NCBI GenBank assembly: GCA_031418595.1 | Contig: JANOXU010000267.1 | Coordinates: forward strand, 1,848-65,847 | Length of the DNA: 64,000 nt | Source of the DNA: Burkholderiales bacterium | GTDB lineage: Bacteria; Pseudomonadota; Gammaproteobacteria; Burkholderiales; Burkholderiaceae_C | Reading direction: 5' to 3' | The notes under the pieces: model-generated | Database searches by the model: none | What the model was told of the DNA's origin: nothing | What the model saw: the letters and a program-made list of their open reading frames with translations, nothing else | Made by a program: the position numbers and the translations under genes | Part shown: one piece after another, positions 16,851 through 33,269 of the stretch | Layout of the letters: each line of letters begins with the position of its first letter | Position numbering within the stretch: position 1 is the first letter of the stretch

Positions 16851-16958
16851 ATTGCAGCAAGCGAGAATGCCCGCGATGTCTTCATGCCCAGCTACGGCAC
16901 ACCGCCTGAGTTTCGCCGCCCAGGCGGGTGTGCTGGCGCGTTCAACCCAGGTGATCGA

Positions 16959-19349
16959 ATGACCCGCCGCTTCGGCCTGTTCCCCAAGTACACGCTGCTC
17001 ATCATCGCCTTGGTGGGTTCGCTGCTGGTGGCCAGCGGCGCGGTGGGCCTGTACTTTTCGTACCACGAGAACCAAGACAGCCTGGTGGCCTTGCAGTTTG
17101 AAAAGGCCCAGGCCGCGGCCACGCGCATCGAGCAATATGTTTTGGACATCGAACAGCAGGTGAGCTGGACCGCGCTGCCCGGCATGGACGGCGGGGCCGA
17201 CCCGGCCGAACAGCGCCGCATCGATTACCTCAAGCTGCTGCGCCAGGCGCCGGCCATCACCGAAGCGGCCTGGATCGATGCCAAGGGCGTGGAACAACTG
17301 CGTGTGTCGCGCCTGGCCATGGATGCCGTGGGCCGCGGCACCGACTACTCTGCCGCCCCGATGTTCACTGTGCCCATGGCCGGCAAGGTGTTCCACAGCC
17401 CGGTGTCGTTTCGCAAAGAGACCGAGCCATACCTGACCGTGTCGCGCCGTGCCGGTCCAGGTGGGGGTGTGACGGCGGTCGACGTGAATTTGAAGTTCGT
17501 GTGGGATGTGGTGTCGCGCATCAAGATTGGTGATGCCGGCCTGGCTTATGTGGTGGACGACAAAGGCACGCTCATCGCCCACCCCGACATCAGCCTGGTG
17601 CTGCAAAAGAGTGACCTGTCCAAACTGCCACAGGTGGCCGTGGCCATCGGCGCGAAGGCGCAGCGCGCAGCGGGTGATGCTGCCATGGTGGAAAAGGCGC
17701 GCAATGCGCGCGGCGGGCGCGTCTTGGCCGCGCACGCCAGCATCCCCACGCTGGGCTGGACGGTGTTTGTCGAGTCGCCCCGCTCTGAAGCGTTCGCACC
17801 GTTGTACGAAACCCTGGCCCGCATGGCCCTGGTGCTGGCGCTGGGCCTGGGGCTGTCGGTGGTGGCCAGCTTCTTCTTGGCGCGCACGCTGGTGCGGCCG
17901 ATTCGCGCCATTCAAGACGGTGCTGAGCGTGTGGCGCAAGGCGATCTGGATCATCACATTGAAGTCAAGAGCCACGACGAGCTGCAAGTGTTGGCCGGTC
18001 AATTCAACCGCATGAGCAGCGAGCTGAAGGCTTCGTACACCGGCCTGGAACGCAAGGTCGATGCGCGCACGGCCGAGCTGCAAGAGGCGTTGGACTACCA
18101 AACCGCCAGCGGTGACGTGCTCAAGGTCATCAGCCAGTCTCCTGGCAGCGTCTTGCCCGTGTTCGAGGTGATCCTGGACAGCGCCAAACGCTTGTTCGGT
18201 GCGTCGATGGCAGCGGTGTTTCGTTACGAGGCGGGCAATGTGGCGATCGTGGCCACACGCAATTGGTCAGCACAGGCCATTGAAGACGCGAAGCGGCACT
18301 ATCCCGGGCCAGTGAACCCTGGCATGGTCACAGGCCGGGCGATCCTGACACGACAAGTGGTGAACCAGCCCGATGTGCGCAACGACCCCCACTACGACAA
18401 GGCCACCGCCGCGGCAGGCGGCTGGCGGCGCCTGCTGGCGGCGCCTTTGCTGCGCGAGGGCGAACCCATTGGCGTGATCACCGTTGCCTGGCACGAACCC
18501 GGCGACACGCCACCGCGCCAGCAGGCCTTGGTGCGCACCTTTGCCGACCAGGCCGTCATTGCCCTTGAAAACGCCCGCCTGTTCAACGACCTGCAAGACA
18601 AAACCCGCCAGCTCGAAGCCGCCAACCGCCACAAGAGCGAATTCCTGGCCAACATGAGCCACGAGTTGCGCACGCCGCTGAACGCCATCATCGGTTTTTC
18701 AGAAGCGCTCATCGAGAAGATGTTTGGCGACGTGAACGACAAGCAGATGGAATACCTGCAAGACATTCACTCCTCGGGCCACCACTTGCTCAGCCTGATC
18801 AACGACGTGCTCGACCTGAGCAAGATCGAGGCTGGGCGCATGGAGCTGGATCTGAGTTGTTTCGATCTGGGCCAGTTGCTGGAGCATTCCACCATGCTGG
18901 TGCGCGAACGTGCCCAGCGCCATGGCTTGGCATTAACCTTAGAGGTGAGCGACGACCTGGCCGAGTGGGTGGGCGACGCGCGCAAGATCAAGCAAGCGGT
19001 GGTGAACCTGCTCAGCAACGCGGTCAAGTTCACGCCCAACGGCGGGCGCGTCACGCTGCGCGCCCGGTTGCTCAACGAATGGCAGGGCCAGGGCGGCGCG
19101 TTTGCGCTGGTGTCGGTGCAAGACACCGGCGTGGGCATTGCACCGGGCGATCAGGAACTGGTGTTCGAGGAATTCCGCCAGGCCGGTGGCGACGTGCTGC
19201 GCAAGAGCGAAGGCACGGGGCTGGGCCTGGCGCTGGTGAAGCGCTTTGTGGAACTGCACGGCGGCAGCGTCACGCTGCAAAGCGCGCCGGGCGCCGGTTC
19301 CACCTTCAGCTTTGTGTTGCCGCAGCATGAATTGAAAGCCCTCCAATGA
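16959..19349 (+). CDS. Sensor histidine kinase: TM-periplasmic Cache-TM-HAMP-GAF-HisKA-HATPase
   Basis: Start MTRRFGLF at 16959; two hydrophobic helices; HAMP (DELQVLAGQFNRM); GAF (LAAPLLREGEPIGVI...FADQAVIALENARLF); H-box FLANMSHELRTP; N/G boxes NAVKFT, DTGVGI, GTGLGL. Confidence 0.92.
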   Translation: MTRRFGLFPKYTLLIIALVGSLLVASGAVGLYFSYHENQDSLVALQFEKAQAAATRIEQYVLDIEQQVSWTALPGMDGGADPAEQRRIDYLKLLRQAPAITEAAWIDAKGVEQLRVSRLAMDAVGRGTDYSAAPMFTVPMAGKVFHSPVSFRKETEPYLTVSRRAGPGGGVTAVDVNLKFVWDVVSRIKIGDAGLAYVVDDKGTLIAHPDISLVLQKSDLSKLPQVAVAIGAKAQRAAGDAAMVEKARNARGGRVLAAHASIPTLGWTVFVESPRSEAFAPLYETLARMALVLALGLGLSVVASFFLARTLVRPIRAIQDGAERVAQGDLDHHIEVKSHDELQVLAGQFNRMSSELKASYTGLERKVDARTAELQEALDYQTASGDVLKVISQSPGSVLPVFEVILDSAKRLFGASMAAVFRYEAGNVAIVATRNWSAQAIEDAKRHYPGPVNPGMVTGRAILTRQVVNQPDVRNDPHYDKATAAAGGWRRLLAAPLLREGEPIGVITVAWHEPGDTPPRQQALVRTFADQAVIALENARLFNDLQDKTRQLEAANRHKSEFLANMSHELRTPLNAIIGFSEALIEKMFGDVNDKQMEYLQDIHSSGHHLLSLINDVLDLSKIEAGRMELDLSCFDLGQLLEHSTMLVRERAQRHGLALTLEVSDDLAEWVGDARKIKQAVVNLLSNAVKFTPNGGRVTLRARLLNEWQGQGGAFALVSVQDTGVGIAPGDQELVFEEFRQAGGDVLRKSEGTGLGLALVKRFVELHGGSVTLQSAPGAGSTFSFVLPQHELKALQ

Positions 19350-19723
19350 GCCGCATCCTGATCGTTGAAGACAACGCCAAGAACATGAAGCTGGTGCGCG
19401 ATTTGCTGCAACACCGCGGCCATGAAACCCTGGAAGCCGAAGACGGTGAAACCGGGGTGGCGTTGGCCCTGGCGCAGCGGCCCGAGCTGATCCTGATGGA
19501 CATTCAGTTGCCCGACATCAGCGGCGTCACCGCGCTGGCGCGTATCCGCGAAGATGCCTCGCTCGACGCCGTGCCTTGTTTGGCCGTGTCAGCCTCGGTG
19601 ATGCCCGACGAGCAGCAACGTATCGTGGCCTCGGGCTTCGATGGCTTCATCGCCAAGCCAATTTCTTTGAAGACGTTCCTGGCGGCCGTGGACGCTGCAC
19701 TCAGCAACGGCCGCAAAGCATGA
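19346..19723 (+). CDS. Single-domain response regulator (DivK-like receiver)
   Basis: ILIVEDN, LILMDIQLP, GFDGFIAKP; ATGA overlap with the kinase. Confidence 0.93.
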   Translation: MSRILIVEDNAKNMKLVRDLLQHRGHETLEAEDGETGVALALAQRPELILMDIQLPDISGVTALARIREDASLDAVPCLAVSASVMPDEQQRIVASGFDGFIAKPISLKTFLAAVDAALSNGRKA

Positions 19724-20847
19724 CTGACGCAGCAGGTGGCCACATCCTCGTCGTTGACGACGTGGAAAAGAACGCCCGTCTGCTGGCCGATGTGCTCACT
19801 GCCAAAGGCTTTCGCACGCGCACCGCGCTGTCGGGCGAGGCTGCGCTGCAAGACGTGGCGGCGCACCCGCCCAGCCTGATCTTGCTCGACGTGATGATGC
19901 CGGGCATCAGCGGCTACGACGTCTGCCGCACGCTGCGCGCCGACCCGGCGCATGCCGTGTTGCCCATCGTGCTGGTCACGGCACTCGACCCGAGCACGGA
20001 GCGCGTGAAAGGCCTGGAGGCGGGTGCTGACGACTTCTTGAGCAAGCCGGTGAATCAAGCCGAACTGCTGGCGCGCGTGCGTTCGCTGTTGCGCATCAAG
20101 ACGCTGTATGACGAAGTGCAGCGCCAAAAGGCCGAGCTGCAGCAATGGAACCAGTCGCTCGAACAGCGTGTGGCCGATGGCGTGCGGCAACTCGAACAAG
20201 TGGGCCGCCTGAAGCGCTTTTTCTCACCGCAACTGGCCGACATGCTGGTGCAAGGCGGCGACGAACTGCTCAAGACGCACCGCCGCGAGATTTGCGTCGT
20301 GTTCATCGACTTGCGCGGCTTCACCACCTTCACCGAACGTGCTGAACCCGAAGAGGTGATGGAGTTGCTGCACAGCTACCACCAGGCCATGGGTCAGATC
20401 GTGGTGGCGCACAGCGGCACGCTGGAGCGTTTTGCCGGCGACTCGGTGATGGTGTTTTTCAACGACCCCGTGCCCATCGACAAGCCGGCCGAAGCCGCCG
20501 TGCGCATGGCCTTGCAAATGCAGCAGGCCTTCACGCCGTTGGCCCAGGCGTGGGCCAAGCGCGGCTTTGATTTGGCGCTGGGCTGCGGCATCGCCCAGGG
20601 CTACGCCACGCTGGGTGCGATTGGCTTCGAGGGCCGCTGGGACTATGCCGCCATCGGCAACGTCACCAACATGGCCGCGCGCTTGTGCGGCGAGGCCGGC
20701 GGCGGCCAGGTGCTGGTCGACCGCAAGGCCATGGCCCACATTGAAGACCTGGTGCATGCCGCGCCGGTGGGGCCGCTGGTGCTGAAGGGGTTGGCGCAAC
20801 CGGTGATGGCGTTTGCCGTGTCGGAACTGAAACCATCGAACTCATGA
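19720..20847 (+). CDS. Receiver domain fused to class III adenylate/guanylate cyclase
   Basis: Start MTDAAG at 19720; REC (LVVDD, LLDVMMP, FLSKP); cyclase VFIDLRGFT, RFAGD, IGNVTNMAARL. Confidence 0.92.
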   Translation: MTDAAGGHILVVDDVEKNARLLADVLTAKGFRTRTALSGEAALQDVAAHPPSLILLDVMMPGISGYDVCRTLRADPAHAVLPIVLVTALDPSTERVKGLEAGADDFLSKPVNQAELLARVRSLLRIKTLYDEVQRQKAELQQWNQSLEQRVADGVRQLEQVGRLKRFFSPQLADMLVQGGDELLKTHRREICVVFIDLRGFTTFTERAEPEEVMELLHSYHQAMGQIVVAHSGTLERFAGDSVMVFFNDPVPIDKPAEAAVRMALQMQQAFTPLAQAWAKRGFDLALGCGIAQGYATLGAIGFEGRWDYAAIGNVTNMAARLCGEAGGGQVLVDRKAMAHIEDLVHAAPVGPLVLKGLAQPVMAFAVSELKPSNS

Positions 20848-21890
20848 GAGACAGACTGCAGATGAACGACGAAAGTGCTGTGCGCGCAGGCGGGTCAGAG
20901 CGGGTCGCGGTGCAGCCCGATGTGCTGCGCCGCGGCCTGGCCTTTTGTGCGCTGGCCTGGCCTGCCTGGCCGGCTGGCGCGCAGCAGCCCGGGCGCATCT
21001 ATCGGCTGGGTTGGCTCAGCAGCACCGAACGCCAGGAGCCCTATGCCTTGGCCATGGTGCAGCGTTTGCGCGAGTTGGGCTTTGTCGAAGGCGGCAACCT
21101 GAGCATCGAATTCAGGCTGGTGCCGGCACGCGAAGACGCCTTTTTGCGCATGGCCGAGGAGCTGGGCCGGCTGAATTGCGACGCGCTCTTTGCGTCGGGC
21201 CATCAGATCGGTCTGAGCGCCGCGTTGCAAGGCACGCAGCGCATTCCCATCATCACCGTGGCCAACGACATCGACCCCGTGGCCGCCGGCTTTGTGGCCA
21301 GCCTGGCGCGGCCCGGCGGGCGCATCACGGGTGTTTCGCAACTCATGAGCGAGTTGCCGGGCAAGCGCCTGGAAGTGGTGCGCGAGCTGCTGCCGCGGGC
21401 GCGCCGCGTGGCCGTGTTGGCCGACGCGGTGACCAAGCCGCAGTTGCAGGTCACTCGCGCTGCCGCGGCCAAACTCGGCTTTGAACTCGTGGTGCATGAA
21501 TTCGATGCCCCGCCCTACGACCTGCCCGCTGCCTTTGGCCGTTTCAAGCGGGCGGGCGCTGAAGTGATGGTGTCGCTGGCATCGGCTTTCTTCGCGGTGC
21601 AGCGCAAGGCCATCGTTGCGCTGGCCACCCAACACCGCTTGCCGGGCATCTTCCCGAATGCAGTGTGGGCAGACGCGGGTGGTTTGATGTCGTACGGGCC
21701 GAACTTCTTGGTGTCATACCGGCGTGCCGCCGACATTCTGGCCAAGGTCTTCAACGGCGCCGACCCGGCCGTGCTGCCGATGGAGCAGCCCCAGGTCATC
21801 GAGACGGTGCTCAACCTTGGCGTGGCCAAGCGCATGGGTGTGGCCATTCCACAGGCCATCGCGCTGCGGGCGGATCGGGTGGTCGAGTGA
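20844..21890 (+). CDS. Orphan ABC-type substrate-binding protein (COG2984 family), copy 3 (start 20844 or 20862)
   Basis: RRGLAF leader; YRLGWL, DPVAAGFVASLARPGGRITG, KRLEVVRELLP, GGLMSYGP, ADRVVE end; ATGA overlap with the cyclase. Confidence 0.88.
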   Translation: MRDRLQMNDESAVRAGGSERVAVQPDVLRRGLAFCALAWPAWPAGAQQPGRIYRLGWLSSTERQEPYALAMVQRLRELGFVEGGNLSIEFRLVPAREDAFLRMAEELGRLNCDALFASGHQIGLSAALQGTQRIPIITVANDIDPVAAGFVASLARPGGRITGVSQLMSELPGKRLEVVRELLPRARRVAVLADAVTKPQLQVTRAAAAKLGFELVVHEFDAPPYDLPAAFGRFKRAGAEVMVSLASAFFAVQRKAIVALATQHRLPGIFPNAVWADAGGLMSYGPNFLVSYRRAADILAKVFNGADPAVLPMEQPQVIETVLNLGVAKRMGVAIPQAIALRADRVVE

Positions 21891-21990
21891 AGGCCGCCCG
21901 GGGCAATGGCGGGCCGTTGCGCGCGTGCTCGTCGGCGCTTGCCCTTGGGCGCCCGGCGCGGGCAAGTTCTTGACCTTGAAAGGCAGCGCG

Positions 21991-23139
21991 ATGAAATGTG
22001 TCCTGGCCGGCTCCCGGTTCTTCGGCGCCTCGGTGTTGCAGGCGCTGCATCGGGAGCCGGGCATTGAATTCGCCGGCGTGGTGGTGCCCGCGGCCGACGA
22101 CCGCCTGGCCCTGGCCGCGCACACCCTGGGCGTGCCGGTGCACGTGCTGGCCAACCCGAAGCTGGTGCCCGGCGGGGCGATGCCTGAGGGCACCGAGCTG
22201 ATCATCGCCGCACATACGCACGCGCGGGTGAGCAATGAAGCGCTGCAACGTTCCAGATTAGGCGGCGTGGGCTACCACCCTTCGCTGCTGCCGCGCCACC
22301 GCGGCATTGCAGCCGTGGAGTGGACGGTGCTGCAAGGTGACGCCATTGCCGGGGGCTCGGTCTACCACCTGGCTGATGGCTGGGACAAAGGCGCCATCGC
22401 GGCGCAGGAATGGTGCTTCGTGCTGCCCGGCGAAGGCGCGCGCGAACTGTGGGAACGTGCCCTGGCGCCGCTGGGCCTGAAGCTGCTGGCGCAGGTGGTG
22501 CAACACGCGCGCTTGCAGGGTGCGCTGCCGGCGCAGATGCAGGACGAACGCTTTGCCACCAAGGCACCGCTGATGCGCAAGGCCGTGCTGCTGACGGAAG
22601 ACGCGCCGGCCGCGACCACGGCGCTGGTCGTCACCATCATGGGGCCTGACCGGCCAGGCATCGTGAGCCAGCTTGCCAGCCTGGCGCAGCGCCATGGCGC
22701 CAACTGGGCGGCCAGCCGCATGTCCAACCTGGCGGGCGAATTCGCCGGCATGGTGCACCTCGACGTGCCGCGCGACCACGCCGCCGCGCTGGCCGCCGCG
22801 CTGCGTGCGCTGCAAGGGCCTGGCCTGCGGGTGCAGGTGGCGCAGGGTGCGGGCTCGGCCGCGCCGGCCGGGCAGCGTGGCGTGTCGCTGGAACTGGTGG
22901 GCGAAGACCGGGTGGGCATCGTCAGCACGCTGGCGCGCCTGCTGGCCGAACGCGGCGTCAGCATCGAGCACATCCACACTGAAATCATCAATCCGCATGG
23001 CAGTGCCGCCGCCGCTTTCAAGGTAGTGGCCCATCTGCTGGTGCCCGCGGCCATGAGCAACGATGCGTTGCGCGAAGACCTGCAAGGCCTGGCGCGAGCG
23101 ATGATGCTGGACATCGCCCTGGGCGAGCACCAGCCCTGA
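21991..23139 (+). CDS. Formyltransferase/10-formyl-THF hydrolase-like domain fused to two C-terminal GcvR-like ACT domains
   Basis: Start MKCVLAG at 21991; GYHPSLLPRHRG...DGWDKG; ACT1 VTIMGPDRPGIV...MSNLAGEFAG; ACT2 LELVGEDRVGIV. Confidence 0.8.
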   Translation: MKCVLAGSRFFGASVLQALHREPGIEFAGVVVPAADDRLALAAHTLGVPVHVLANPKLVPGGAMPEGTELIIAAHTHARVSNEALQRSRLGGVGYHPSLLPRHRGIAAVEWTVLQGDAIAGGSVYHLADGWDKGAIAAQEWCFVLPGEGARELWERALAPLGLKLLAQVVQHARLQGALPAQMQDERFATKAPLMRKAVLLTEDAPAATTALVVTIMGPDRPGIVSQLASLAQRHGANWAASRMSNLAGEFAGMVHLDVPRDHAAALAAALRALQGPGLRVQVAQGAGSAAPAGQRGVSLELVGEDRVGIVSTLARLLAERGVSIEHIHTEIINPHGSAAAAFKVVAHLLVPAAMSNDALREDLQGLARAMMLDIALGEHQP

Positions 23140-23208: not shown

Positions 23209-24075
23209 ATGACCAGTGCCTTTGACCGCAGCGCCGAAGACATCGGCAACATCGTTCACCTGGAGCATGTGAACCTCACCCAGCCAGACCAACGCCTGGC
23301 CACGCAGTTTTATGTGAGCGCATTGGGCCTGACACGCGACCCCTACATGCAGACCGGCACCGACAACATGTGGGTCAACGCCGGGCGCACGCAGTTCCAC
23401 CTGCCCAGCGGCGCGGCGCAGCGTTTGCGCGGTACGGTGAACGTCGTGATTCCCGGCCGCCAGGCGCTGCTGGAGCGCCTGCGCCGCCACAGCGCGGGTT
23501 TGAGCGGCACCTTGTTTCGCTTTGCCGAACATGCCGACCATGTTGAAGCCCAGTGCCCCTGGGGCAACCGCCTGCGCTGCTACGAGCCCGACCCGGCGCG
23601 CTTCGGCGGCGTGCAACTCGGCATTGCCAGCATCGAGTTCGACGTGCCGCACGCCTGCGCCGTGCCCATTGCCGCCTTCTACAGCCAGGTGTTCCGCGCC
23701 CGCGCCAAGCTCAGCGCCACGCCCAGCGGTGCGCCCAGCGCCTGGGTACAGGTGGGCGCGGGGCAGGCGCTGTGGTTCACTGAATCAGCCGCGGTGCCGG
23801 CGCACTATGACGGCCATCACATCCAGCTTTACGTGGCCGACTTTTCCGGCCCGCACCGGCGCCTGGCCGAGCTGGCGCTGGTGAGCGAAGAAAGCAACGC
23901 GCACCAGTACCGCTTCACCGACATCGTCGACCCACAAACGCGCGAGCTGTGCTTCAGGCTCGAACACGAAGTGCGCAGCCTCACGCACCCGATGCACGGC
24001 CGGCCCTTGGTCAACCGCAACCCGCAGCAAAGCGCGCGCCACTACGTGCGCGGTGGTGATGCATTCATGCCCTGA
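23209..24075 (+). CDS. VOC/glyoxalase-like (two-module) hypothetical protein
   Basis: LEHVNL..FYVSALGL, QFHLP, HHIQLY patterns typical of VOC folds; RBS GGAG. Confidence 0.6.
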   Translation: MTSAFDRSAEDIGNIVHLEHVNLTQPDQRLATQFYVSALGLTRDPYMQTGTDNMWVNAGRTQFHLPSGAAQRLRGTVNVVIPGRQALLERLRRHSAGLSGTLFRFAEHADHVEAQCPWGNRLRCYEPDPARFGGVQLGIASIEFDVPHACAVPIAAFYSQVFRARAKLSATPSGAPSAWVQVGAGQALWFTESAAVPAHYDGHHIQLYVADFSGPHRRLAELALVSEESNAHQYRFTDIVDPQTRELCFRLEHEVRSLTHPMHGRPLVNRNPQQSARHYVRGGDAFMP

Positions 24076-24457
24076 GCGGCTTGCCCTGTTCAGGCGTCTG
24101 TTTGACGGCGACGTGCAGCGGGCCAGCATTTCGTTTCGCAACGCGCGGCAGCAAAGTCACCTGCGCCGCAATGTCCACAGCCTGACGGATGCTCGCGCTG
24201 ACGCAGCGCCGAGGAATGAATCGCCAGCCACGGCGTCGTTGGCCACCGCCAGTGCTACCCCTAACATCGAAACGCACGGGACTGCGGCATTGGTGGCAAA
24301 GTAGACGGCCTGTTCTGAGCGGCACGGCGCGCGTGGCCGTAGCGAGCCATGCGCCGTTTGACCTGCGAGATTGATCAGCTGTCACACCATGGTCTGCATT
24401 GACGAAGGTCGGGCACGAATGGTCGCACTGCAGCACAGTGCCGGCCTGCATCTCAGC

Positions 24458-27262
24458 ATGACGGATTCAGCGCCGTCTGGGCGCACGGTCTTCCTCAGCT
24501 ACAACCGCGAAAACGCCACGGCGGCGACGCAACTGCGCGACTGGCTGCGTGATGAAGGCCTGGACGTGTTCATGGACAACGTCCACCTCATCGCCGGCGA
24601 GCCCTGGCTGCAGCGCCTGAAGCAAGAAGTGGCGCAGGCCCGTGCGGTGGTCGTTTTGATGCGCCACGAAGGCCCGCGCGGCTTTGTGCTCGACGAAGTG
24701 AGCTGGTTCCTTGAACGCCACGCGCAGGCGCTGGCCCTGAAGCTGCCCGCGCCGGGTTTGTTTCCGGTTTGTCTGGGCGAGGTACCCGAAGAGCAGGCGC
24801 TCGATGCGCGCGTGCACGCGCTGCTGAAGTTTCAGGTCACGCTTTGGCAACCCGGGCAAGCCATGCCCACCGCTTTGCTCGATGCCCTGCGCAAACTGCT
24901 GCCGTCGGAACACTTCGCGCCCCAGCATTGCCCGTTCCGTGGCCTGGCCACCTTTGAAGAGAGCGACGCCGCGTGGTTCTTCGGCCGCAAGCGCGAAACG
25001 CACGAGGTGACCGACGGCCTGGGCAGCGCGCCCGCAGCCGACGGCACATTCGACCGGCAAGCGCCGGGCCACCGCCGTTATGCGCTGATCAGCGGCGACA
25101 GCGGTTCGGGCAAGTCCTCGCTGCTGCGTGCCGGAGTGTTGCCGCTGCTGCGCGCAGGCGCCCTGTGGTCGCGCACCGGCCTGCGCCACTGGCGCGTCGT
25201 GGGCCCGCTGCGGCCCGGCGCCCGGCCGTTGGCCGAGCTGGAACGCGCACTCAGTGCGATGCTTGACGCGGCCCAGCCCGAGGCGCCGGCTGCGGCCCGG
25301 CTTGCGGCTTTGCGCGGCGATGCCGGCGCGCTGGTTGGCCTGCTCGCCAAGGTTCAGGTTGCGGACACCGGCGTGCTGCTGATCGTTGATCAGATGGAAG
25401 AGCTGCTGCAAACCAGTGTCGATGCGGGCGAGCGGCAGCAGTTTGGCGCGCTGCTGGCCATGGCCTTGCAAACCCCAAGCTGCCCGCTTTACCTGGTCGG
25501 CACCGTGCGGGCCGATGCCCTGGCCGAACTGGACACCTTGGAGCCCGAGTTGGTGCGCGCGCGCAACCGCTGCGGCCTGGTCTATACCTTGCCACGCATC
25601 ACCGAGTCGGGCCTGCGCCTGAGCATTGAAGAGCCGGCGCGCCGCGCGGGCGTCGACGTCAGCGAAGTGGCCGAACTGATTCTGGGCGAGGCGCACAACG
25701 AGCCCGGCGCCTTGGCCTTGGTGCAGCACGCGCTGTGGTCGTTGTGGCGCACGCAGCACCGGCGCGGGCCCGTCACCCGCTTGCTGCGCAGCGACCATGA
25801 AGCCGCCGGCGGCCTGGCCGGCATGCTCAGCCGCGATGCGGATGCCGCCCTGGAGCAGGTGAAGGCAGAGCTGGGCAGCGACGCCGGCGCGATGCAACTG
25901 TTGCGCCAAATGACCTGGGTGGGCGCCGAAGACCGGCTGTTCCGCCGCCGGTTGGGCCGCACCGAGGCCGAGTGGTGGGCCGGTGCGGGCGAGCGCGAAC
26001 GCGGCGCGCGGGTGATCGGCATGCTCTCAGGCCAAAGTGCAGCGACAGCAGATGCTGAACCCGGCATGGCCCCGGCAGCACATTTGCCGCTGTTAGTGAC
26101 CGGCAACGATGGCGGCGCCGAGCCCTACGTGGAGCTGGTGCACGAGATGCTGCTGCGCACGAGTGGGCGTTCCGGTGAGCCGGCGCGGCCGCATTGGCAG
26201 CGGCTGTATGAATTCATCCAGCGCCACTTGAACGAGCTCAAGCTCGAACAGCGCTTGCACGCCGACGTGCACACCTGGCGCCAGCTCAGCTTCTGGCAAC
26301 GCTGGCGCCGCCTGGCCAGCTTCAAAGAGCAGCGCCAATACGCACGCTTGCCGCGTTCAGCCGATGCCAACACGCGGCGCTATTTGGCGTTCAGCCGCAG
26401 CAAGTCGGGCGTGCTGGTGGCCGCTGTGGCGCTGCCCTTGGCTTACCTGGGCGTGGGCAGCTACTTTATTTTCCAGCAGGGCAATATTTTTCCCATCAAC
26501 TACGCCACGCGGCTGCCGCTGTGGGCACTGGGCATGGGCGCCGAACCTGAGTTCGCGCGCCTGCCCGGCGCCACCGCGACCTTTGACTTTGGTTGCGACC
26601 CGGCACGCGACACGGTGGACAGGCAGGCTTGCGGCGGCGGCTACTTGCCGCTGCAACGCGCTTTCAGCCAGCCCATTCGTTGCGACATGGGCCGCCACGA
26701 GGTCAGCTTCGAACAGTTCGATCGTTTCGTTTTCAGCCAGCGACGTGCCGGCGCCGCACAACACCCGTATCCCGCGCCGGGCGAGAAGGTTCGCGGCGAG
26801 CAGCCGGTGATGGAGGTTTCACGCGCCGATGCGCAGGCCTACGCGGCATGGCTAAGCGCGCGCAGCAACCCACCGCAGCGGTATCGGTTGCCGCTGGAAT
26901 GGGAATGGGAATACGCCGCCCGCGCCGGCTCCAGCGGGCCCTACCCGTGGGGCACCGAGTCGCCCGTGGGCCGCGCCAATTTCGACGACAACGGCCCGGC
27001 CACGCCCGCGGCGCGGCCGGTGCGCAGCGGCCAGCCCAATGCCTTCGGCCTGCACCATGTGGTGGGCAATGTGAGCGAATGGGTGGCCGACGATGCCAAC
27101 CCCTTCACGGCCTCGGCGCCGCAGCATGTTTCACGCGGCGGCTCTTTCGCTCAAGGCGCCTCGCGGGTACGGGTGGCGGCGCGCCAGTCCATGGAACCCG
27201 ATCAAGCGGGCGACACGAGCACGGCCACCAACATTGGCTTCAGGCTTTGTCGGGAAAGATGA
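24458..27262 (+). CDS. TIR - nSTAND1 NTPase - transmembrane helix - FGE-sulfatase (SUMF1-like) protein (start 24458; 24419 possible)
   Basis: TIR: VFLSYNRE...FMD...GEPW...FVLDEV. Linker CPFRGLATFEESDAAWFFGR. Walker A GDSGSGKSS; Walker B LIVDQMEE; ELVHEMLL..HWQRL. TM VLVAAVALPLAYLGVGSYFIF. FGE: RLPLEWEWEYAAR, PNAFGLHHVVGNVSEW, RGGSF, IGFRL. Confidence 0.88.
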   Translation: MTDSAPSGRTVFLSYNRENATAATQLRDWLRDEGLDVFMDNVHLIAGEPWLQRLKQEVAQARAVVVLMRHEGPRGFVLDEVSWFLERHAQALALKLPAPGLFPVCLGEVPEEQALDARVHALLKFQVTLWQPGQAMPTALLDALRKLLPSEHFAPQHCPFRGLATFEESDAAWFFGRKRETHEVTDGLGSAPAADGTFDRQAPGHRRYALISGDSGSGKSSLLRAGVLPLLRAGALWSRTGLRHWRVVGPLRPGARPLAELERALSAMLDAAQPEAPAAARLAALRGDAGALVGLLAKVQVADTGVLLIVDQMEELLQTSVDAGERQQFGALLAMALQTPSCPLYLVGTVRADALAELDTLEPELVRARNRCGLVYTLPRITESGLRLSIEEPARRAGVDVSEVAELILGEAHNEPGALALVQHALWSLWRTQHRRGPVTRLLRSDHEAAGGLAGMLSRDADAALEQVKAELGSDAGAMQLLRQMTWVGAEDRLFRRRLGRTEAEWWAGAGERERGARVIGMLSGQSAATADAEPGMAPAAHLPLLVTGNDGGAEPYVELVHEMLLRTSGRSGEPARPHWQRLYEFIQRHLNELKLEQRLHADVHTWRQLSFWQRWRRLASFKEQRQYARLPRSADANTRRYLAFSRSKSGVLVAAVALPLAYLGVGSYFIFQQGNIFPINYATRLPLWALGMGAEPEFARLPGATATFDFGCDPARDTVDRQACGGGYLPLQRAFSQPIRCDMGRHEVSFEQFDRFVFSQRRAGAAQHPYPAPGEKVRGEQPVMEVSRADAQAYAAWLSARSNPPQRYRLPLEWEWEYAARAGSSGPYPWGTESPVGRANFDDNGPATPAARPVRSGQPNAFGLHHVVGNVSEWVADDANPFTASAPQHVSRGGSFAQGASRVRVAARQSMEPDQAGDTSTATNIGFRLCRER

Positions 27263-28914
27263 ACATGCGGCTCAAAGCAATCATGCTGGCATTGGCCACC
27301 GCTGGCGTTTGCGGCGCTGCCTGGGCACAGACCAGCCCACCCGTGCCGGAGCCACCGGCCCAGTTGGTGCCCAGCACCAAGCCGGCGGCACCGCCGGTGG
27401 TCGAGGTGCGGCATTACCTGGTGCTGGGCGTGACGCTGCTCGACGCCGCCGTGGTGCGCGCCGCACTCACCGGGTTGATCGGCCCACGCACGGTGGAAGA
27501 ACTGCACCGCGCCGCGGGCCAGGTGCAGGCGCTGTACGCGCGTGCCGGTTATGGCGCGGTGGTGGTGTACCTGCCGCCGCAAGAAGTGTCGGGCGGCGTC
27601 ATCACCTTGCAGGTGATTGAAGGCCGCTTGTCAGCGGTGCGCGTGGAAGGCGCTGGCCCGGCCTTCGGCGAGGCCGGCATCCTGGCCAGCCTGCCGGCGC
27701 TGCAAGCTGGCCAGACACCGCGCCTGGACCGGGTTGACGCGCAGTTGCGCATGGCCAACGACAACCCGGCCAAACGCACCCGCCTGGTGCTGCTGCCTGG
27801 GCAGCAGCCCGAACAGACCGAGGCCGAGATCGCGGTGGCGCCGGCGCCACGCCGCCAGCTTGGGCTGGAGCTTGATGACAGCGGCACGCCGGCCACCGGG
27901 CGCGCGCACCTGGGCCTGACCTGGCGCGACGCCAATGCGAGCGGCCGCGACGATGTGCTCGAACTGCGCCTGCAAGTCGCGCCCGAACAGCCCAGGCAAT
28001 TCGCGGCGGCCGGCCTGAGCTACCGGCTGCCGCTGTACCGCGCGCGCACCATGCTCGACGCCTTTGCGCTGCTGTCAGACACGCGCAGCGCCAGCATTCC
28101 CACGGCGCTGGGCGAGCTGCGCTTCGCCGGGCGCGGCCATCTGCTGGGGCTGCGCGCGACGCACTACCTGCCGCGGCTGGCGGCGTTTGATGCGCGCCTG
28201 GCATTAGGGCTCGAATACCGCGACCAACGCAACCAATGCGCCATCGGCACCCTGCCTGGCGGGGCCTGCGGCAGCGCGGGCGGTGATTTGGCCATCTTGC
28301 CCTTGACCCTGGAATACAGCCTGGCTGGCGACGCGCTGACGCCGCTGGCCCTGAACCTGGCCTGGGTGCAGGGCCTGGCCGCGGGTGGCGGCCGCGCTGA
28401 CCGCGCCGCGTTCGACGCCGTGCGGCCCGGCGCGCGACCCACCTTCACCGCGCTGCGGGCCCAGTTGAGTGCGCAACAACGCCTGAGCGTCACCGGCTGG
28501 GCCGCCAGCGCGCGCCTGGCCGGGCAATGGGCGGCGCAGCCCTTGGTGCCGGCGATGCAGTTCGGTGCCGGTGGGCGCGCTTCAGTGCGGGGCTACGAGG
28601 AGCGCGAACTCGCGGCCGACCATGGCCTGGCGCTGTCGCTGGAGTTGTCCGCACCCGGTTGGCAGGGCCCGCCCTGGCCGGGCACCACCTTGCGCCCACT
28701 GTTGTTCGTTGACGCCGCCACGCTGCGCAACCGCGACGCCGCCCCTTGCAGCGGCCTGCAGATGCGGTGCGACCTGGCCAGTGCCGGCTTTGGCCTGCGG
28801 CTCGACGCACGCGCGCTCACAGTCAGCCTGGACATCGCCCACGCTCTGCGCAGCGCGGGCACCACCCAGCGCGGGCACACGCGCGGCCACGTCTGGCTGC
28901 GCCTGGTGTATTGA
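27259..28914 (+). CDS. TpsB (ShlB/FhaC/HecB) two-partner secretion outer-membrane transporter
   Basis: Start MNMRLK (ATGA overlap); signal peptide; POTRA (LYARAGYGAVVVYLPPQEV..GVITLQVIEGRL); DDSG; QFGAGGRASVRGY motif; beta-strand C-terminus WLRLVY. Confidence 0.92.
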   Translation: MNMRLKAIMLALATAGVCGAAWAQTSPPVPEPPAQLVPSTKPAAPPVVEVRHYLVLGVTLLDAAVVRAALTGLIGPRTVEELHRAAGQVQALYARAGYGAVVVYLPPQEVSGGVITLQVIEGRLSAVRVEGAGPAFGEAGILASLPALQAGQTPRLDRVDAQLRMANDNPAKRTRLVLLPGQQPEQTEAEIAVAPAPRRQLGLELDDSGTPATGRAHLGLTWRDANASGRDDVLELRLQVAPEQPRQFAAAGLSYRLPLYRARTMLDAFALLSDTRSASIPTALGELRFAGRGHLLGLRATHYLPRLAAFDARLALGLEYRDQRNQCAIGTLPGGACGSAGGDLAILPLTLEYSLAGDALTPLALNLAWVQGLAAGGGRADRAAFDAVRPGARPTFTALRAQLSAQQRLSVTGWAASARLAGQWAAQPLVPAMQFGAGGRASVRGYEERELAADHGLALSLELSAPGWQGPPWPGTTLRPLLFVDAATLRNRDAAPCSGLQMRCDLASAGFGLRLDARALTVSLDIAHALRSAGTTQRGHTRGHVWLRLVY

Positions 28915-28941
28915 CGCCGACTCAACCGCAGGAGAACCGCC

Positions 28942-31900
28942 ATGGCACTGCCTGTTCATCTTCACCTGTCGCGGCTCGCACAGGCTGCGCTGTGTGGCCT
29001 GGCCGCATGGCCGCTTGGCGCCTACGCCGGCGACCTGCTGCTGCCTGTGGCGCCCACGGTGGTGCATGGCCAAGCCCGCATCACCACCACGGGCCAGACC
29101 ATGACGGTGACCAGTGGGCGCAATGCCGCGATCGACTGGCGCAGCTTTTCCATCGGGCCGCAGGCGGCGGTGCGCTTCGAGCAAGCTGATGCTGCCAGCC
29201 AGGTGCTCAACCGCGTGCTCGGGCGCGACCCCTCGCAGATCCTCGGGCGCCTGAGCAGCAACGGCGAGGTCTGGCTCATCAACCCCTACGGTGTGCTGTT
29301 CGGCCGCGACGCGCGGGTCGACGTGGCCGGGCTGGTGGCCTCGACCCTGAACCTGTCCACCGCCGACTGGGCCGCCGGCCGGCGCCGGCTTGATCAACTG
29401 GCTGGCGTGCCGGGTGCGGCCGTCAGCAACGCCGGCACGCTGCGCAGCCGCAGCGGCGGGCGCATCTTGCTGGTGGGCGGCGCCGGGGTGGTCAACGAGG
29501 GCGAGATCGACGCGCCTCAGGGCCGCATCGGCTTGCATGCCGCCGCCAGCGTGGAGCTGGCCGACAGTGCGCAGCCCGACATCGCCGTGCGCGTTTTCGC
29601 GCCAGGCCAGGGTGTGCTCAACCGCGGCGTGCTCAGCGCCGCAGGCGGCGTCATCGACCTGCAAGGCGCGATGGTCAATCAAGCCGGTGTGGTGCGGGCC
29701 GATGGCCTGGCCAGCGGGCCGGGCGGCGCGGTGCTGCTGCGCGCCAGCAACTCGCTGGTGTTTGAGGCGGGCAGCCTGACATCGGCCACCGGCGCGCCGG
29801 GCGGGCGCATTGATCTGCTGGGCGGCACGCAGCTCGTGCAGGGCCGCATCGACGCCGGTTCCGCCACCGGCCTGGGCGGACAGCTCAGCCTGGCCGGGCC
29901 GCAGATCGCGTTGCTGGACGGGGCGGTGCTGCAAGCGGATGGCGCCTTGGGCGGTGGCCTGCTCGCCGTTGGCGCGCCGCACGAAGCCAACGGCCTGCGC
30001 CTGCCGGCAGCGCAAGCGGTGTTTGTGGATCGCGGCGCGCGCCTGTCGGCCGACGCGCTGCACAGCGGTGATGGCGGCAGCATTCGCCTGTGGAGCGACG
30101 GCGCCACGCGCGCCTTTGGCCGCTTCAGTGCCCGCGGTGGCCCCCATGGCGGCAACGGTGGCTTGATTGAAACGTCTGGCCTGGGCTTGGAAGCCAACCC
30201 CGCCGCGGTGGACACTCAGGCGCCACGCGGGCGGGCCGGGCTGTGGCTGCTCGACCCGCTGGACGTTCGCATCGTGTCAGGCAATGGCAGTAACCAGGTC
30301 AGCGCGGGGCCCGACTTCAGCCCGCTGGGGTCGAATGCAAGCATCGGCACCAACACCATCACGAGCGCGCTGGCCAGTGGCGACGTGACCATCAGCACCG
30401 GCGCCACCGGCACACAGGCGGGGACGATCTCGATGAACGACGTGACGCTGAATGCGCCCCTGCCCGCGATCATCACAGGGGCCGGCAGCCTGATCGTGGA
30501 ACGCACGCTCACATTGAATGCCGCTTCGGGCATTGTCCTGACCGATGCCAGCATTCAGTCGAGCAGCGGTCGACTGCACCTGCGCTTGCTCGCCGGTTCA
30601 GGCGCCGCCGACGGCATCAGCCTGAATAACGCCAGCATCAACGTGCGGGGCGACCTCACGATGCGCGGGGCGAGTCTCAGCACCCAGGCTTCAATCGTCA
30701 TTGCGCGGCAGATCGACGTGCAGGCCAACCGGATCACGCTGGGCACGCCGTCGTCGATTGAAGGCATTGAGCCCACGCTGTTCGCCACGGGCGCGGGCAA
30801 TGCGCTGGTCGTGCGCGGCCTGGTTGACAACGTCGCTGTCTTTGACAGCGTGGCCGGCAGCAGCGCCCTGGCCACGGGTGATTCAGGCCGCTGGCTGCTC
30901 TATGCGCGCGACCCGGCTAACACCAGGCTCGATGGGCTGGCCTACCAGTTCAAGCAGTACGGTGCCATCTACCCGGCGCCAGCGCTGGGCGATGGCAATG
31001 CAAACGGCCTGCTCTACGCCACGCAGCCGGTGCTGGGCGTTGCCTCGAGCCTGCCACTGAACAAGGTGTATGACGGCAGCCGCACGCTGGGGTTGTCGGC
31101 GGCCCAGCTCGACACGTTGGCCCTGACCGGCTTTCTGCCCGGTGATGCGCCAAGCGTGCGCACCGGCCTGATCGCCAGCCTGAGCTACGACAGCCGCAAC
31201 GCGGGCGCTGCCGTGCCGATCACGGCCAGCCTGAAAGGCGAGCTGCCAGCGGTGTTTGATGGGGACAGTCCGGTCTACGGCTACGTCTTCGCGGGCCAGG
31301 GGCTGGCCGGCAACATCAACCCCGCTGCGCTCACCTACCGCGCCCAACCCCTGACCGTGGTGGCCGGCACGGGCTGGCCCGCGCTGGCCGGAACAGTCAC
31401 AGGCTTCGTGCCCGGTGAGTCGCAGGCCAGCGCCACCAGCGGCACGCTGCGCTTCACAACCGCGGCCGGGCCAGCGTCGCCGGCCGGCGCCTACGCGGTG
31501 CAAGGCGTGGGCTTGACGGCGGCGAACTACACCTTCGTGAATGATCCGGCCAACGCGCAGGCCCTGCGCGTGCTGCCGGCCGGCAGCAACGAAGGTCTGC
31601 CACGTCCCACCTTGCCCAGCGACAGGCCAGCGCAGCCTGACCAGCCAGGCAACCCGCGCTTGACGGTGGTGGAGCCGATCTCAGCGGCCGGGTTTGCGCC
31701 GCTCGATTCGAGCCGGCTCCCGGGCCGGCAGCTCGATGCGGCGTTTCGTTCGCGCGAGCTGGCCCTGGCGCGCCCCTTCCGCGCCGGCAAAGCCATGCTT
31801 GACGCCAACCCCAGCCTGGCCGACTTGCCCGATTGCGCCGACGTGGGCGGTGCCGTGCAGGGCGAGTGCATCGTCACGCCGGCACTCAAGATCGCCATGC

Positions 31901-33246
31901 AGCGGCTGTGGACGGTGCAGCCGCAATGGGCGGGTGAGTGGGCACTGCTGGATCGGGACGACTTGTTCGACCGCATGGTCTGGCGTGGTGACATCGACCT
32001 GTCAAAGTTCGGGGCGCAGGCTCTCGTCCTGCCGGGCGATAACACGCTCGCGCTGACCACGCCTTCTGGCCTGGGCGGGAGCAGCACACTGACGCCTCAA
32101 ATGCTGGTCATGGCCGCCGCCGGGCAGACCGGCGCCGCCGCTGGCGTGCAAGGGGGAGCTGCCGCGCCGCCGGCGGTCATCGTCGCCAGCGCAGCAACCC
32201 CCGAACAGCTGATCGCCATGGCGCCCACCGCGGCAGTGAATGCGCCAGGCAATGCGCCGGTGTGCGAAACGCCCAAGCAACAGCTCAGCGGCGAATGCCA
32301 GCGTCAAACCGAGTTGGAAGCCTTACGCGGCGCGCTCCAGCGCTGCGTATCGGAGCCGCGTGACAAGCAACCGGCCTGCCTGTTTTCGGAGCAGGTGAAG
32401 TTCCACCTGCAGCAGCGTGAACGCGAGGCGCGTTTTCTCAGCGTCACCCTGCAACAGCAGGACGCACGCCAGGCCACGCTGCCCGACATTCGGCGCAAGT
32501 GGGCGCTGGTGATCGGCGTCGAGCATTACCCCAAGGTCGCGCTGGGTGGCCAACCCGTGCGCATGCCCAACGCCGGCCACGACGCGCGGGCGGTGGCGGC
32601 CGAGCTGCGTGGCGGCTTTGGCTACATCACGTCAGAACTGGTCAACCCCAGCCGCGCCCAGGTGGTGCAGCGGCTGAACATGTTGGCGGCCGTGGCGCAA
32701 CCGAACGACTCGCTGCTCATCTTCTTCTCGGGCTACGGCTTCAGCATCGCGCAGGGCGACGACGCCGTTTGGGCCTTGAGCGATGCCGACCCGCGTGATG
32801 GCCGCACCGTCTTGTCACACGCCGATCTGGCCAAGCTGCTCGGCTTGATCGACGCGCGCCAGGTGGCATTGATTTCCGACAGCTCGCTGGCCGGGCGCCT
32901 GCGCGTCAAGCCGGTGGACTACAACGCCTTGGCCGCGCCCGACGCGGTTGGGCTGCTCGACCGCCGCGCCACGGTGGCGCTGACATCGGGCGGCAACCTG
33001 CCCATGAGCACCATGCAGGGGCAGGGCTTGTCGGACTTCGCGGCGCAGTTGGTGGGCGTGCTGCGCCGGGTGAAGACCTGGCACGTGGGTGGGCGCATCT
33101 TCCGCGAAGTGCAAACGCCCTTGATCCAGGCCGGCCGGCCCTTCGTGCCGCAGTACGGGGCCGCATCGGAACGCCTGCACCAGCCGCGCGCGGACTACAT
33201 CTTCGAACGCCGTGAACTGCAAGCCGAAGTACCGGCCAAGCCGTGA
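28942..33246 (+). CDS. TpsA exoprotein: HMW1-type TPS domain, beta-helix, YDG and MBG repeats, Cys-rich linker, C-terminal caspase-like (C14) domain with substituted dyad
   Basis: Signal peptide; IDWRSFSIG..VLNRV..SNGEVWLINPYG; GGLIETSG..WLLDP; KVYDG; INPAALT...AANYTF; KWALVIGVEHY..PNAGHDA..LIFFSGYG..LISDSS. Confidence 0.85.
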   Translation: MALPVHLHLSRLAQAALCGLAAWPLGAYAGDLLLPVAPTVVHGQARITTTGQTMTVTSGRNAAIDWRSFSIGPQAAVRFEQADAASQVLNRVLGRDPSQILGRLSSNGEVWLINPYGVLFGRDARVDVAGLVASTLNLSTADWAAGRRRLDQLAGVPGAAVSNAGTLRSRSGGRILLVGGAGVVNEGEIDAPQGRIGLHAAASVELADSAQPDIAVRVFAPGQGVLNRGVLSAAGGVIDLQGAMVNQAGVVRADGLASGPGGAVLLRASNSLVFEAGSLTSATGAPGGRIDLLGGTQLVQGRIDAGSATGLGGQLSLAGPQIALLDGAVLQADGALGGGLLAVGAPHEANGLRLPAAQAVFVDRGARLSADALHSGDGGSIRLWSDGATRAFGRFSARGGPHGGNGGLIETSGLGLEANPAAVDTQAPRGRAGLWLLDPLDVRIVSGNGSNQVSAGPDFSPLGSNASIGTNTITSALASGDVTISTGATGTQAGTISMNDVTLNAPLPAIITGAGSLIVERTLTLNAASGIVLTDASIQSSSGRLHLRLLAGSGAADGISLNNASINVRGDLTMRGASLSTQASIVIARQIDVQANRITLGTPSSIEGIEPTLFATGAGNALVVRGLVDNVAVFDSVAGSSALATGDSGRWLLYARDPANTRLDGLAYQFKQYGAIYPAPALGDGNANGLLYATQPVLGVASSLPLNKVYDGSRTLGLSAAQLDTLALTGFLPGDAPSVRTGLIASLSYDSRNAGAAVPITASLKGELPAVFDGDSPVYGYVFAGQGLAGNINPAALTYRAQPLTVVAGTGWPALAGTVTGFVPGESQASATSGTLRFTTAAGPASPAGAYAVQGVGLTAANYTFVNDPANAQALRVLPAGSNEGLPRPTLPSDRPAQPDQPGNPRLTVVEPISAAGFAPLDSSRLPGRQLDAAFRSRELALARPFRAGKAMLDANPSLADLPDCADVGGAVQGECIVTPALKIAMQRLWTVQPQWAGEWALLDRDDLFDRMVWRGDIDLSKFGAQALVLPGDNTLALTTPSGLGGSSTLTPQMLVMAAAGQTGAAAGVQGGAAAPPAVIVASAATPEQLIAMAPTAAVNAPGNAPVCETPKQQLSGECQRQTELEALRGALQRCVSEPRDKQPACLFSEQVKFHLQQREREARFLSVTLQQQDARQATLPDIRRKWALVIGVEHYPKVALGGQPVRMPNAGHDARAVAAELRGGFGYITSELVNPSRAQVVQRLNMLAAVAQPNDSLLIFFSGYGFSIAQGDDAVWALSDADPRDGRTVLSHADLAKLLGLIDARQVALISDSSLAGRLRVKPVDYNALAAPDAVGLLDRRATVALTSGGNLPMSTMQGQGLSDFAAQLVGVLRRVKTWHVGGRIFREVQTPLIQAGRPFVPQYGAASERLHQPRADYIFERRELQAEVPAKP

Positions 33247-33269
33247 TTTCGCCCCGCGCCAGCGGCCAG

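Follow-up and report, generated by a model that had tools for sequence, protein, structure and literature searches.

The 64,000-nucleotide (nt) stretch of DNA analysed here (the window) comes from a Burkholderiales bacterium (Burkholderiaceae_C; GCA_031418595.1, contig JANOXU010000267.1, positions 1,848-65,847, forward strand). It encodes, at 24458..27262, a 934-residue protein that combines a TIR domain, an nSTAND1 NTPase module, a predicted transmembrane helix and a C-terminal domain with the fold of the formylglycine-generating enzyme (FGE) and sulfatase-modifying proteins. This putative receptor gene is predicted to be the first of a translationally coupled, three-gene operon whose other two members, tpsB and tpsA, specify a two-partner secretion (TPS) pair. 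The exoprotein TpsA ends in a caspase-like domain that has lost its catalytic dyad, and this tail is the most obvious candidate ligand of the FGE domain. We propose, at about even confidence for and against, that the three proteins form a trans-envelope sensor: from the periplasm, the FGE domain would read the TpsA tail and fire the TIR domain across the inner membrane. The receptor gene, its partners and all the features of the module described below lie on the forward strand.

The TGA stop codon of the receptor gene overlaps the ATG of tpsB in the sequence ATGA (27259-27262), and it is from this overlap that translational coupling is predicted. tpsB (27259..28914) encodes a putative outer-membrane transporter with a POTRA_2 domain (Pfam E 2.4e-12) and a ShlB barrel (1.5e-27), and is separated by 27 nt from tpsA (28942..33246). 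The 1434-residue TpsA comprises a signal peptide, a TPS domain (residues 45-241; E 5.7e-28; NPYGV motif at residue 114), YDG/MBG_2 repeats, a Cys-rich linker and the C-terminal caspase-like domain. Possession of a POTRA domain and a ShlB/Omp85 barrel by TpsB and of an N-terminal TPS domain by TpsA identifies the pair, by sequence, as a two-partner (type Vb) secretion system. A terminator-like hairpin at 24071..24094 (consensus match only), following the upstream open reading frame (ORF), is the likely 5' boundary of the operon. The consensus scan gave one weak match within the STAND gene (24745-24757) and no terminator-like site after 24757, hence none at the gene junctions. The next gene after tpsA, 23 nt away, is convergent and encodes a PfkB kinase. 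Neither a VENN-type pre-toxin motif nor an immunity gene was found in the module and the tail is catalytically dead, so that membership of the contact-dependent inhibition (CdiBAI) toxin systems was rejected. No description of an nSTAND1-FGE gene in an operon with TpsB and a TpsA carrying a dead caspase was found in the literature.

The caspase-like tail of TpsA (32482..33243) was recognised as a p20-like Peptidase_C14 domain by Pfam, motif alignment and fold match. The catalytic histidine is replaced by Tyr1265 (SGYG, 32734-32736) and the catalytic cysteine by Ser1315 (SDSS, 32884-32886), and every member of the STAND-linked clade has SGYG and SDS(S/T/A) at the dyad sites. An AlphaFold2 model of the tail built from six sequences is of low confidence (mean predicted local distance difference test, pLDDT, 50) and was used for fold-level matching alone; its top matches are GSU0716, MALT1 and Yca1, of the caspase/metacaspase fold. 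Taken together, the alignment and fold matches characterise the tail as a pseudo-orthocaspase, from which the His-Cys dyad has gone while the caspase fold is retained. The linker preceding it contains three conserved C-x10-C pairs (C965/976, C1108/1119 and C1135/1146; 31834..32379), which account for all of the cysteines of mature TpsA. The dead caspase is not decaying. Its ratio of non-synonymous to synonymous substitution rates (dN/dS) is 0.09 between the window and the orthologous contig L025, 0.15 against L001 and 0.17 against L003, the lowest values in the module (0.41-0.47 for the central TpsA repeats), and shows strong purifying selection. (Contigs of relatives are labelled L001-L103 and so on, proteins of relatives P0009-P0121, and the genome to which the window belongs G000.)

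A scan for TpsA-caspases, restricted to one genome per species, yielded 78 loci with related tails from Rubrivivax, Roseateles, Aquabacterium, Piscinibacter, Leptothrix and others. The SDSC motif is kept in 74 of them, at least 71 of which also keep AGHG (in the other three the His site escaped the motif pattern), and none of these 74 active loci has a STAND partner. The remaining four, all from the STAND-linked clade, carry Tyr plus Ser or Ala. Dyad loss thus goes together with the gain of a STAND partner. The dead TpsA shares 35-42% identity with the active TpsA-caspases, and no description of a widespread TpsB-TpsA family with an intact caspase dyad was found in the literature.

Many active loci (e.g. 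L021, L023, L035, L086 and L088) encode, in addition to TpsB and the TpsA-caspase, an OmpA-like protein, a membrane-anchored protein of about 330 residues and a Ser/Thr kinase in which one membrane helix is followed by a DUF4384 domain. Some adjoin genes for type VI secretion system (T6SS) FHA, PP2C, TagF and TssM proteins. These kinase-helix-DUF4384 modules recall TagQRST-PpkA-Fha1, the T6SS threonine-phosphorylation pathway. A third conserved partner was sought in active loci devoid of the OmpA-like protein and kinase, and was rejected, the neighbours checked being housekeeping genes (UvrA, GlnE, EamA, PPK and a PilT-like ATPase). In three loci, a 939-residue protein with no Pfam match is encoded directly downstream of the active TpsA-caspase gene (L067:1127-3946 is an example). 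The DUF4384 domain has also been found fused to caspases (PMC6426788), and caspase-FGE fusions are frequent (33 proteins, 4.9% of prokaryotic metacaspases; PMC3501461). There appear, then, to be two related settings in which the neighbour of a TpsA-caspase is an inner-membrane signalling protein of the single-pass type, with a caspase-associated module as its outer domain. The parallel wiring of the kinase-DUF4384 loci and the domain fusions lend limited support to a contact between the FGE domain and the TpsA tail.

The STAND-TpsB-TpsA order and tight spacing recur in the window and in the orthologous modules on L001/L002, L003/L004, L025, L102 and L103, the contigs that carry relatives at 61-72% identity. 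The three genes occur together in all six clade contigs where downstream DNA is visible and their flanks are unrelated each time, the upstream neighbour differing in every orthologous module. Its own genome has a single copy of the module; 200 further genomes of the family, one of the same genus among them, lack it. A metagenome scan for further modules returned a contig that was already known and one 1.6-kb fragment. The G+C content is 68-73% over the module (window positions 24000-34000) vs roughly 61-71% elsewhere in the window. The module behaves, from this pattern, as a rare accessory unit, and its raised G+C content together with its absence from the same-genus genome is consistent with horizontal acquisition.

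Three domains of the receptor were recognised with Pfam scores far beyond chance: TIR_2 (residues 11-108, 24488..24781, E 1e-11), nSTAND1 (residues 159-609, 24932..26284, E 1.2e-69) and the FGE-sulfatase, or C-type-lectin-like, fold (residues 744-931, 26687..27250, E 6.9e-32), the last being non-catalytic and predicted periplasmic. The true start of the gene is uncertain, in-frame alternatives being present upstream of 24458 (TTG 24371, ATG 24389 and ATG 24419), and the N-termini of orthologues are 30-45 residues longer than that of the 934-residue product. The nSTAND1 profile (PF20703) scores 236 bits vs a Pfam cut-off of 27.1, whereas the NACHT match, at 19.4 bits, falls below its cut-off of 26.7; the sequence thus places the receptor in the nSTAND1 clade and not among NACHT or NB-ARC proteins. 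The AlphaFold2 model, built from an alignment of 36 relatives, has a mean pLDDT of 88. In structure it best matches true FGEs, PvdO, RPP1 (about 620 aligned columns), the TIR domain of SARM1 and Avs5. The TIR domain itself matches the SARM1 TIR fold, and the NTPase module matches RPP1, Avs5 and ORC/Cdc6. On these grounds the protein can be assigned to the nSTAND1-FGS class of NLR-like conflict proteins.

An earlier note on this DNA, made from the sequence alone, had described the TIR domain as retaining the glutamate of the catalytic position and the NTPase as having intact Walker motifs, and both descriptions hold. The conserved glutamate of the TIR W-x-x-x-E motif is present as E80 (codon 24695-24697, in GFVLDEV). 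It falls in the conserved Glu column of the family alignment, and a profile search of solved structures aligned it with the glutamate of WPQKELD in PdTIR (3h16), of WTEYELN in 7uxr and of WPARELD in 4c7m, BtpA. Walker A (GDSGSGKS, residues 213-220, 25094-25117) and Walker B (LLIVDQMEE, residues 307-315, 25376-25402) have their key residues invariant across the 36 relatives (S215, G216, G218, K219, S220, S221, D311, Q312 and E314), in which the Walker B motif fits hhhhDQxEE. No PADLOC system model was matched at family level, Thoeris and Avs included. The PADLOC and NCBIfam matches are weak and confined to the TIR part (the best being SAVED_TIR at 3.7e-8, with ThcB4 at 30.9 bits vs a cut-off of 220 and a weak ThsB-like match), and membership of a catalogued defence system was accordingly rejected.

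The same note held that the C-terminal domain lacks the paired active-site cysteines of true FGE. Alignment at residue level with the human (2aft, 2afy) and T. curvata (6s07) enzymes bears this out: neither member of the copper-binding pair of the human enzyme (C336/C341) is kept, the first site being occupied by Q899 and the second falling in a 3-residue deletion (RGGSFAQGAS, 27134-27163), and C931 is the sole cysteine after residue 742. As both catalytic cysteines are missing, the domain has the FGE fold but is incapable of acting as a formylglycine-generating enzyme. Its dN/dS of 0.15-0.21 indicates purifying selection. A blastn search of the whole genome with the FGE DNA found no template repeat, and the genome's single reverse-transcriptase match (contig C114:28145-28786, a 666-residue open frame) is not on the receptor contig; a diversity-generating retroelement was therefore rejected as an explanation of the FGE domain. 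The lack of a retroelement and the purifying selection would fit a conserved, self-encoded ligand and not a fast-evolving invader molecule. A tree of FGE domains places the clade as sister to other TIR-STAND-FGE proteins (P0009, P0011 and P0013), apart from the caspase-fused FGEs. Capture of the domain from a caspase-FGE fusion was rejected in view of this grouping and of the even per-domain identity. Accelerated divergence specific to the FGE domain was dropped as well.

A single hydrophobic helix ahead of the FGE fold had also been noticed earlier. It was recovered here from hydropathy, relatives and the AlphaFold2 model as a predicted transmembrane helix at residues 652-672 (VLVAAVALPLAYLGVGSYFIF, 26411..26473), separating the nSTAND1 module from the FGE domain. 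The best 19-mer has a mean Kyte-Doolittle value of 1.92, the N-terminal flank is rich in Arg and Lys (NTRRYLAFSRSKSG), and residues 637-673 are modelled as one long helix enclosing the hydrophobic segment. A hydrophobic 19-mer occupies the identical alignment position in 33 of the 36 aligned relatives. Their 15-residue flanks contain a total of 177 Lys and Arg on the N side vs 77 on the C side, an inside-positive bias that fits an N-in, C-out orientation, which is the likely topology of the receptor. In a wider survey of the 120 nearest relatives, scored for a segment of hydropathy ≥ 1.6 beyond the STAND module, 48 of 59 nSTAND1-FGE proteins have one between their STAND and FGE parts, and 50 of 61 nSTAND1 proteins ending in WD40, TPR, PBP or other domains likewise carry a post-STAND hydrophobic helix. 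In these non-FGE relatives (P0017-P0121) the helix is often strongly hydrophobic (2.0-2.9), with an RRRxRR N-flank. Moreover, the nearest FGE domains outside the receptor family occur in proteins with modules of secreted type (Big_2, PKD, FG-GAP and fn3). There is thus good support for the prediction that the receptor is a single-pass inner-membrane protein with cytoplasmic TIR and STAND modules and a periplasmic FGE domain. A membrane helix after nSTAND1 looks like a property of this nSTAND1 branch, which makes the helix more credible here despite its weaker value of 1.92, and a large part of the nSTAND1 family may be made up of single-pass membrane receptors. The main text of PMC8195603, in which the family was defined, does not state that a membrane helix follows nSTAND1.

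The TIR-nSTAND1-FGE architecture is of a known kind. In defining nSTAND1, Kaur, Iyer, Burroughs and Aravind (2021, PMC8195603) described STAND-FGS proteins with an N-terminal TIR, caspase, trypsin or kinase domain as conflict systems, often linked to a diversity-generating retroelement, and regarded the FGS domain as an intracellular sensor of invaders. Dore et al. (2024, PMC10907252) reported that STAND-lectin-fold proteins are retroelement targets and that some of their lectin-fold domains are predicted periplasmic. The protein studied here shares with the effector-STAND-FGS proteins the combination, in one polypeptide, of an N-terminal effector (TIR being listed explicitly), an nSTAND1 NTPase and a C-terminal FGS sensor. 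It differs in having neither a retroelement nor a template repeat, in the purifying selection on its FGE domain, in its TPS operon with a dead caspase and in a sensor predicted to be periplasmic and not, as in the text of PMC8195603, intracellular. New here are three points: an operon that includes a dead caspase, conserved and secreted by the TPS route, the lack of a retroelement, and a membrane helix that recurs throughout the family.

Plant TIR-NLRs (RPP1, ROQ1) and the bacterial STAND defence proteins Avs and bNACHT likewise join a TIR domain to a STAND NTPase, and the ligand-driven oligomerisation that activates them would be a further common point; RPP1 and Avs5 are among the fold matches. 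However, these proteins are soluble and cytoplasmic and use LRR or TPR sensors, in place of the membrane helix and lectin-fold ectodomain predicted here. With Toll-like receptors (TLRs) the protein would share a single-pass arrangement with the sensor outside and the TIR domain inside, but it has no LRR ectodomain, its STAND module lies between the TIR domain and the membrane, and its polarity is opposite, the TIR domain being N-terminal. The resemblance to TLRs is thus best read as analogy and not as whole-protein homology. The earlier note had interpreted the protein as a bacterial TLR/NLR hybrid driven by an extracytoplasmic ligand. This interpretation is partly supported: its anatomy is correct, its N-in, C-out topology is backed by family-wide evidence, and its analogy with receptors is reasonable. 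The label "TLR/NLR-like receptor" is a fair functional analogy, because the model matches RPP1, the SARM1 TIR domain and FGE-fold proteins. The interpretation must be amended, since the architecture had already been described and since the TpsB/TpsA operon, whose tail is a likelier ligand than an unspecified external molecule, had been overlooked. NADase activity, oligomerisation and ligand binding are properties that we infer for the receptor from its sequence.

The partner proteins also have recognisable counterparts. As in CdiB/CdiA and FhaC/FhaB, TpsB has POTRA and barrel domains and TpsA an N-terminal TPS domain; here, in contrast, there is no VENN motif, toxin or immunity gene, the tail is an inactive caspase, and a TIR-STAND receptor is encoded upstream. 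The Tyr/Ser pseudo-orthocaspases of Klemencic et al. (2019, PMC6426788), which are mostly cytoplasmic and come from Cyanobacteria and Alphaproteobacteria, also have Tyr and Ser in the places of the His-Cys dyad within a p20 fold, whereas the domain described here forms the C-terminus of a TPS-secreted exoprotein of Burkholderiales. The Rubrivivax, Roseateles and Piscinibacter modules (TpsB, TpsA with active caspase, OmpA, unknown protein and kinase) have a homologous TpsB/TpsA pair beside a single-pass inner-membrane signalling protein, but they combine an intact dyad with a kinase output and are sometimes adjacent to a T6SS, whereas the present module combines a dead dyad with a TIR-STAND output. 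Finally, pFGE/SUMF2, PvdO and PorK/GldK have an FGE-sulfatase fold devoid of the catalytic Cys pair, and PvdO and PorK act in the periplasm, but the union of this fold with a TIR domain, a STAND NTPase and a membrane helix is seen in none of these proteins.

The proposed trans-envelope sensor could operate as follows. TpsB would export the TpsA filament to the cell surface, and the Cys-rich, dead-caspase C-terminus would stay in, or pass through, the periplasm, by analogy with the C-terminal half of CdiA, which waits there until its receptor has been bound according to a passage of PMC7644211 that cites Ruhe 2018. The FGE ectodomain would bind the tail in this compartment. A change in the contact between the two would constitute the signal, possible triggers being release of the tail on target engagement, blocked export or cleavage. 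Transmitted through the membrane helix, the signal would allow the STAND NTPase to oligomerise, and the clustered TIR domains would then cleave NAD+, so that growth would stop or the cell would die, either as abortive defence or in response to contact. The tail might either hold the receptor off or switch it on.

Several observations weigh against this proposal. The periplasmic retention of the TpsA tail is borrowed by analogy from CdiA and FhaB, and the model of the TpsA C-terminus is of low confidence (mean pLDDT 50). The helix is moderately hydrophobic (Kyte-Doolittle mean 1.92) and contains Pro and Gly. The six independent modules all come from one narrow Burkholderiales clade, so that their co-inheritance could reflect shared descent. 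The FGE domain of the clade is not specifically related to the caspase-fused FGEs, and the argument from fusions holds at the level of domain families alone. Moreover, TIR-nSTAND1-FGE relatives at 27-40% identity have no accompanying TPS genes and are found by themselves, within defence islands or beside a diversity-generating retroelement. One such relative, 35% identical, lies in a retroelement locus (L005:10001-17839) that comprises bAvd, a reverse transcriptase and two TIR-nSTAND1-FGE genes, the second of them convergent; further TIR and patatin/TPR-S genes are nearby, and the locus looks like a defence island.

These relatives, which stand alone, among TIR genes, on mobile elements or with a retroelement, agree with another explanation, in which the receptor is a stand-alone periplasmic sensor whose FGE domain binds a foreign molecule that reaches the periplasm (for example an effector of a competitor, a fragment of the cell wall, or a protein or glycan of a phage) and fires the TIR domain, the TPS genes encoding an unconnected adhesin or weapon that happens to share the island. 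The published model of STAND-FGS proteins is indeed one of direct binding of invader molecules (PMC8195603). This explanation is nevertheless unlikely in view of the ATGA coupling, of a gene order that is invariant in six different flanks, of the exact coincidence of caspase dyad loss with the presence of a STAND partner, and of the purifying selection on an FGE domain with no retroelement, unlike what is expected of an invader-tracking sensor. Alternatively, the receptor might detect incoming caspase toxins, the FGE domain recognising the active TpsA tail of a competitor and the cell's own dead TpsA serving as a harmless mimic, a receptor competitor or a priming ligand. Relatives within the bacterial family commonly secrete active TpsA-caspases, whose genes occur widely in Rubrivivax, Roseateles, Aquabacterium and Piscinibacter (74 of 78 loci retrieved), and the dead version is 35-42% identical to them, but intercellular delivery of the active proteins has no supporting evidence, neither a VENN-type motif nor an immunity gene is present here, and suicide after toxin delivery would be of little use unless kin were protected; we judge this possibility to be very unlikely.

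Two further alternatives concern the receptor itself. Were the hydrophobic segment not a membrane helix, the whole protein would be cytoplasmic and the TPS linkage a matter of regulation or chance. The modest hydrophobicity (1.92), the Pro and Gly in the helix and the description of FGS domains as intracellular sensors in PMC8195603 speak for this. Conversely, the position of the segment is conserved in very divergent relatives, in many of which its hydropathy reaches 2.0-2.9, the inside-positive bias is strong, and the nearest outside FGE domains accompany secreted-type modules (Big_2, PKD, FG-GAP and fn3), which together make a cytoplasmic receptor highly improbable. The TIR domain, for its part, might not deplete NAD+ and might instead be a synthase of a signalling nucleotide or an assembly scaffold, with the effector encoded elsewhere in the genome. 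Many bacterial TIR domains, e.g. that of Thoeris ThsB, make signals, and the weak ThsB-like and ThcB4-like matches point in this direction. However, no gene for ThsA, SLOG, SAVED or another signal receiver was found within the operon or any orthologous module, and tblastn with the receptor's own TIR domain (E ≤ 1e-3) found no second TIR copy in the genome, divergent TIR genes not having been searched for, so that this alternative, too, has a low probability.

The 288-residue ORF directly upstream of the module (23209-24075), for which there is no Pfam match, ends at the hairpin at 24071-24094. A single frame at 21724-23139 encodes, in the opposite order to PurU, a Formyl_trans_N segment and then two ACT domains. 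Further upstream on the same strand, at 16884-21890, are a Cache-HAMP-GAF histidine kinase, a receiver-adenylate/guanylate cyclase and an ABC-type solute-binding protein, which are seemingly unrelated to the module.

Bacterial NLR-like STAND proteins are held to sense invaders in the cytoplasm. If the trans-envelope proposal is true, the receptor would be a STAND protein that reads periplasmic or outer events via a self-encoded secreted partner, with a protease fold turned into a ligand. As a model for the gating of a STAND switch across a membrane, the module would then be concrete, limited to three genes and open to expression in a laboratory host, and it would offer a function for the Tyr/Ser pseudo-caspases and for the common and unexplained pairing of caspases with FGE domains. 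A wider and more doubtful reading, advanced tentatively, joins these elements into an NLR-like executioner that watches the outside through its own bait: the surface TpsA filament would be a tripwire and its dead-caspase tail would be held in the periplasm by the FGE domain, until disturbance by a phage, predator or competitor released or presented the tail and NAD+ was destroyed. This reading would also turn the majority of nSTAND1 proteins, WD40 and TPR types among them, into transmembrane receptors in place of cytoplasmic sensors. The presence of a membrane helix after nSTAND1 in most close relatives would revise the reading of the whole nSTAND1 family.

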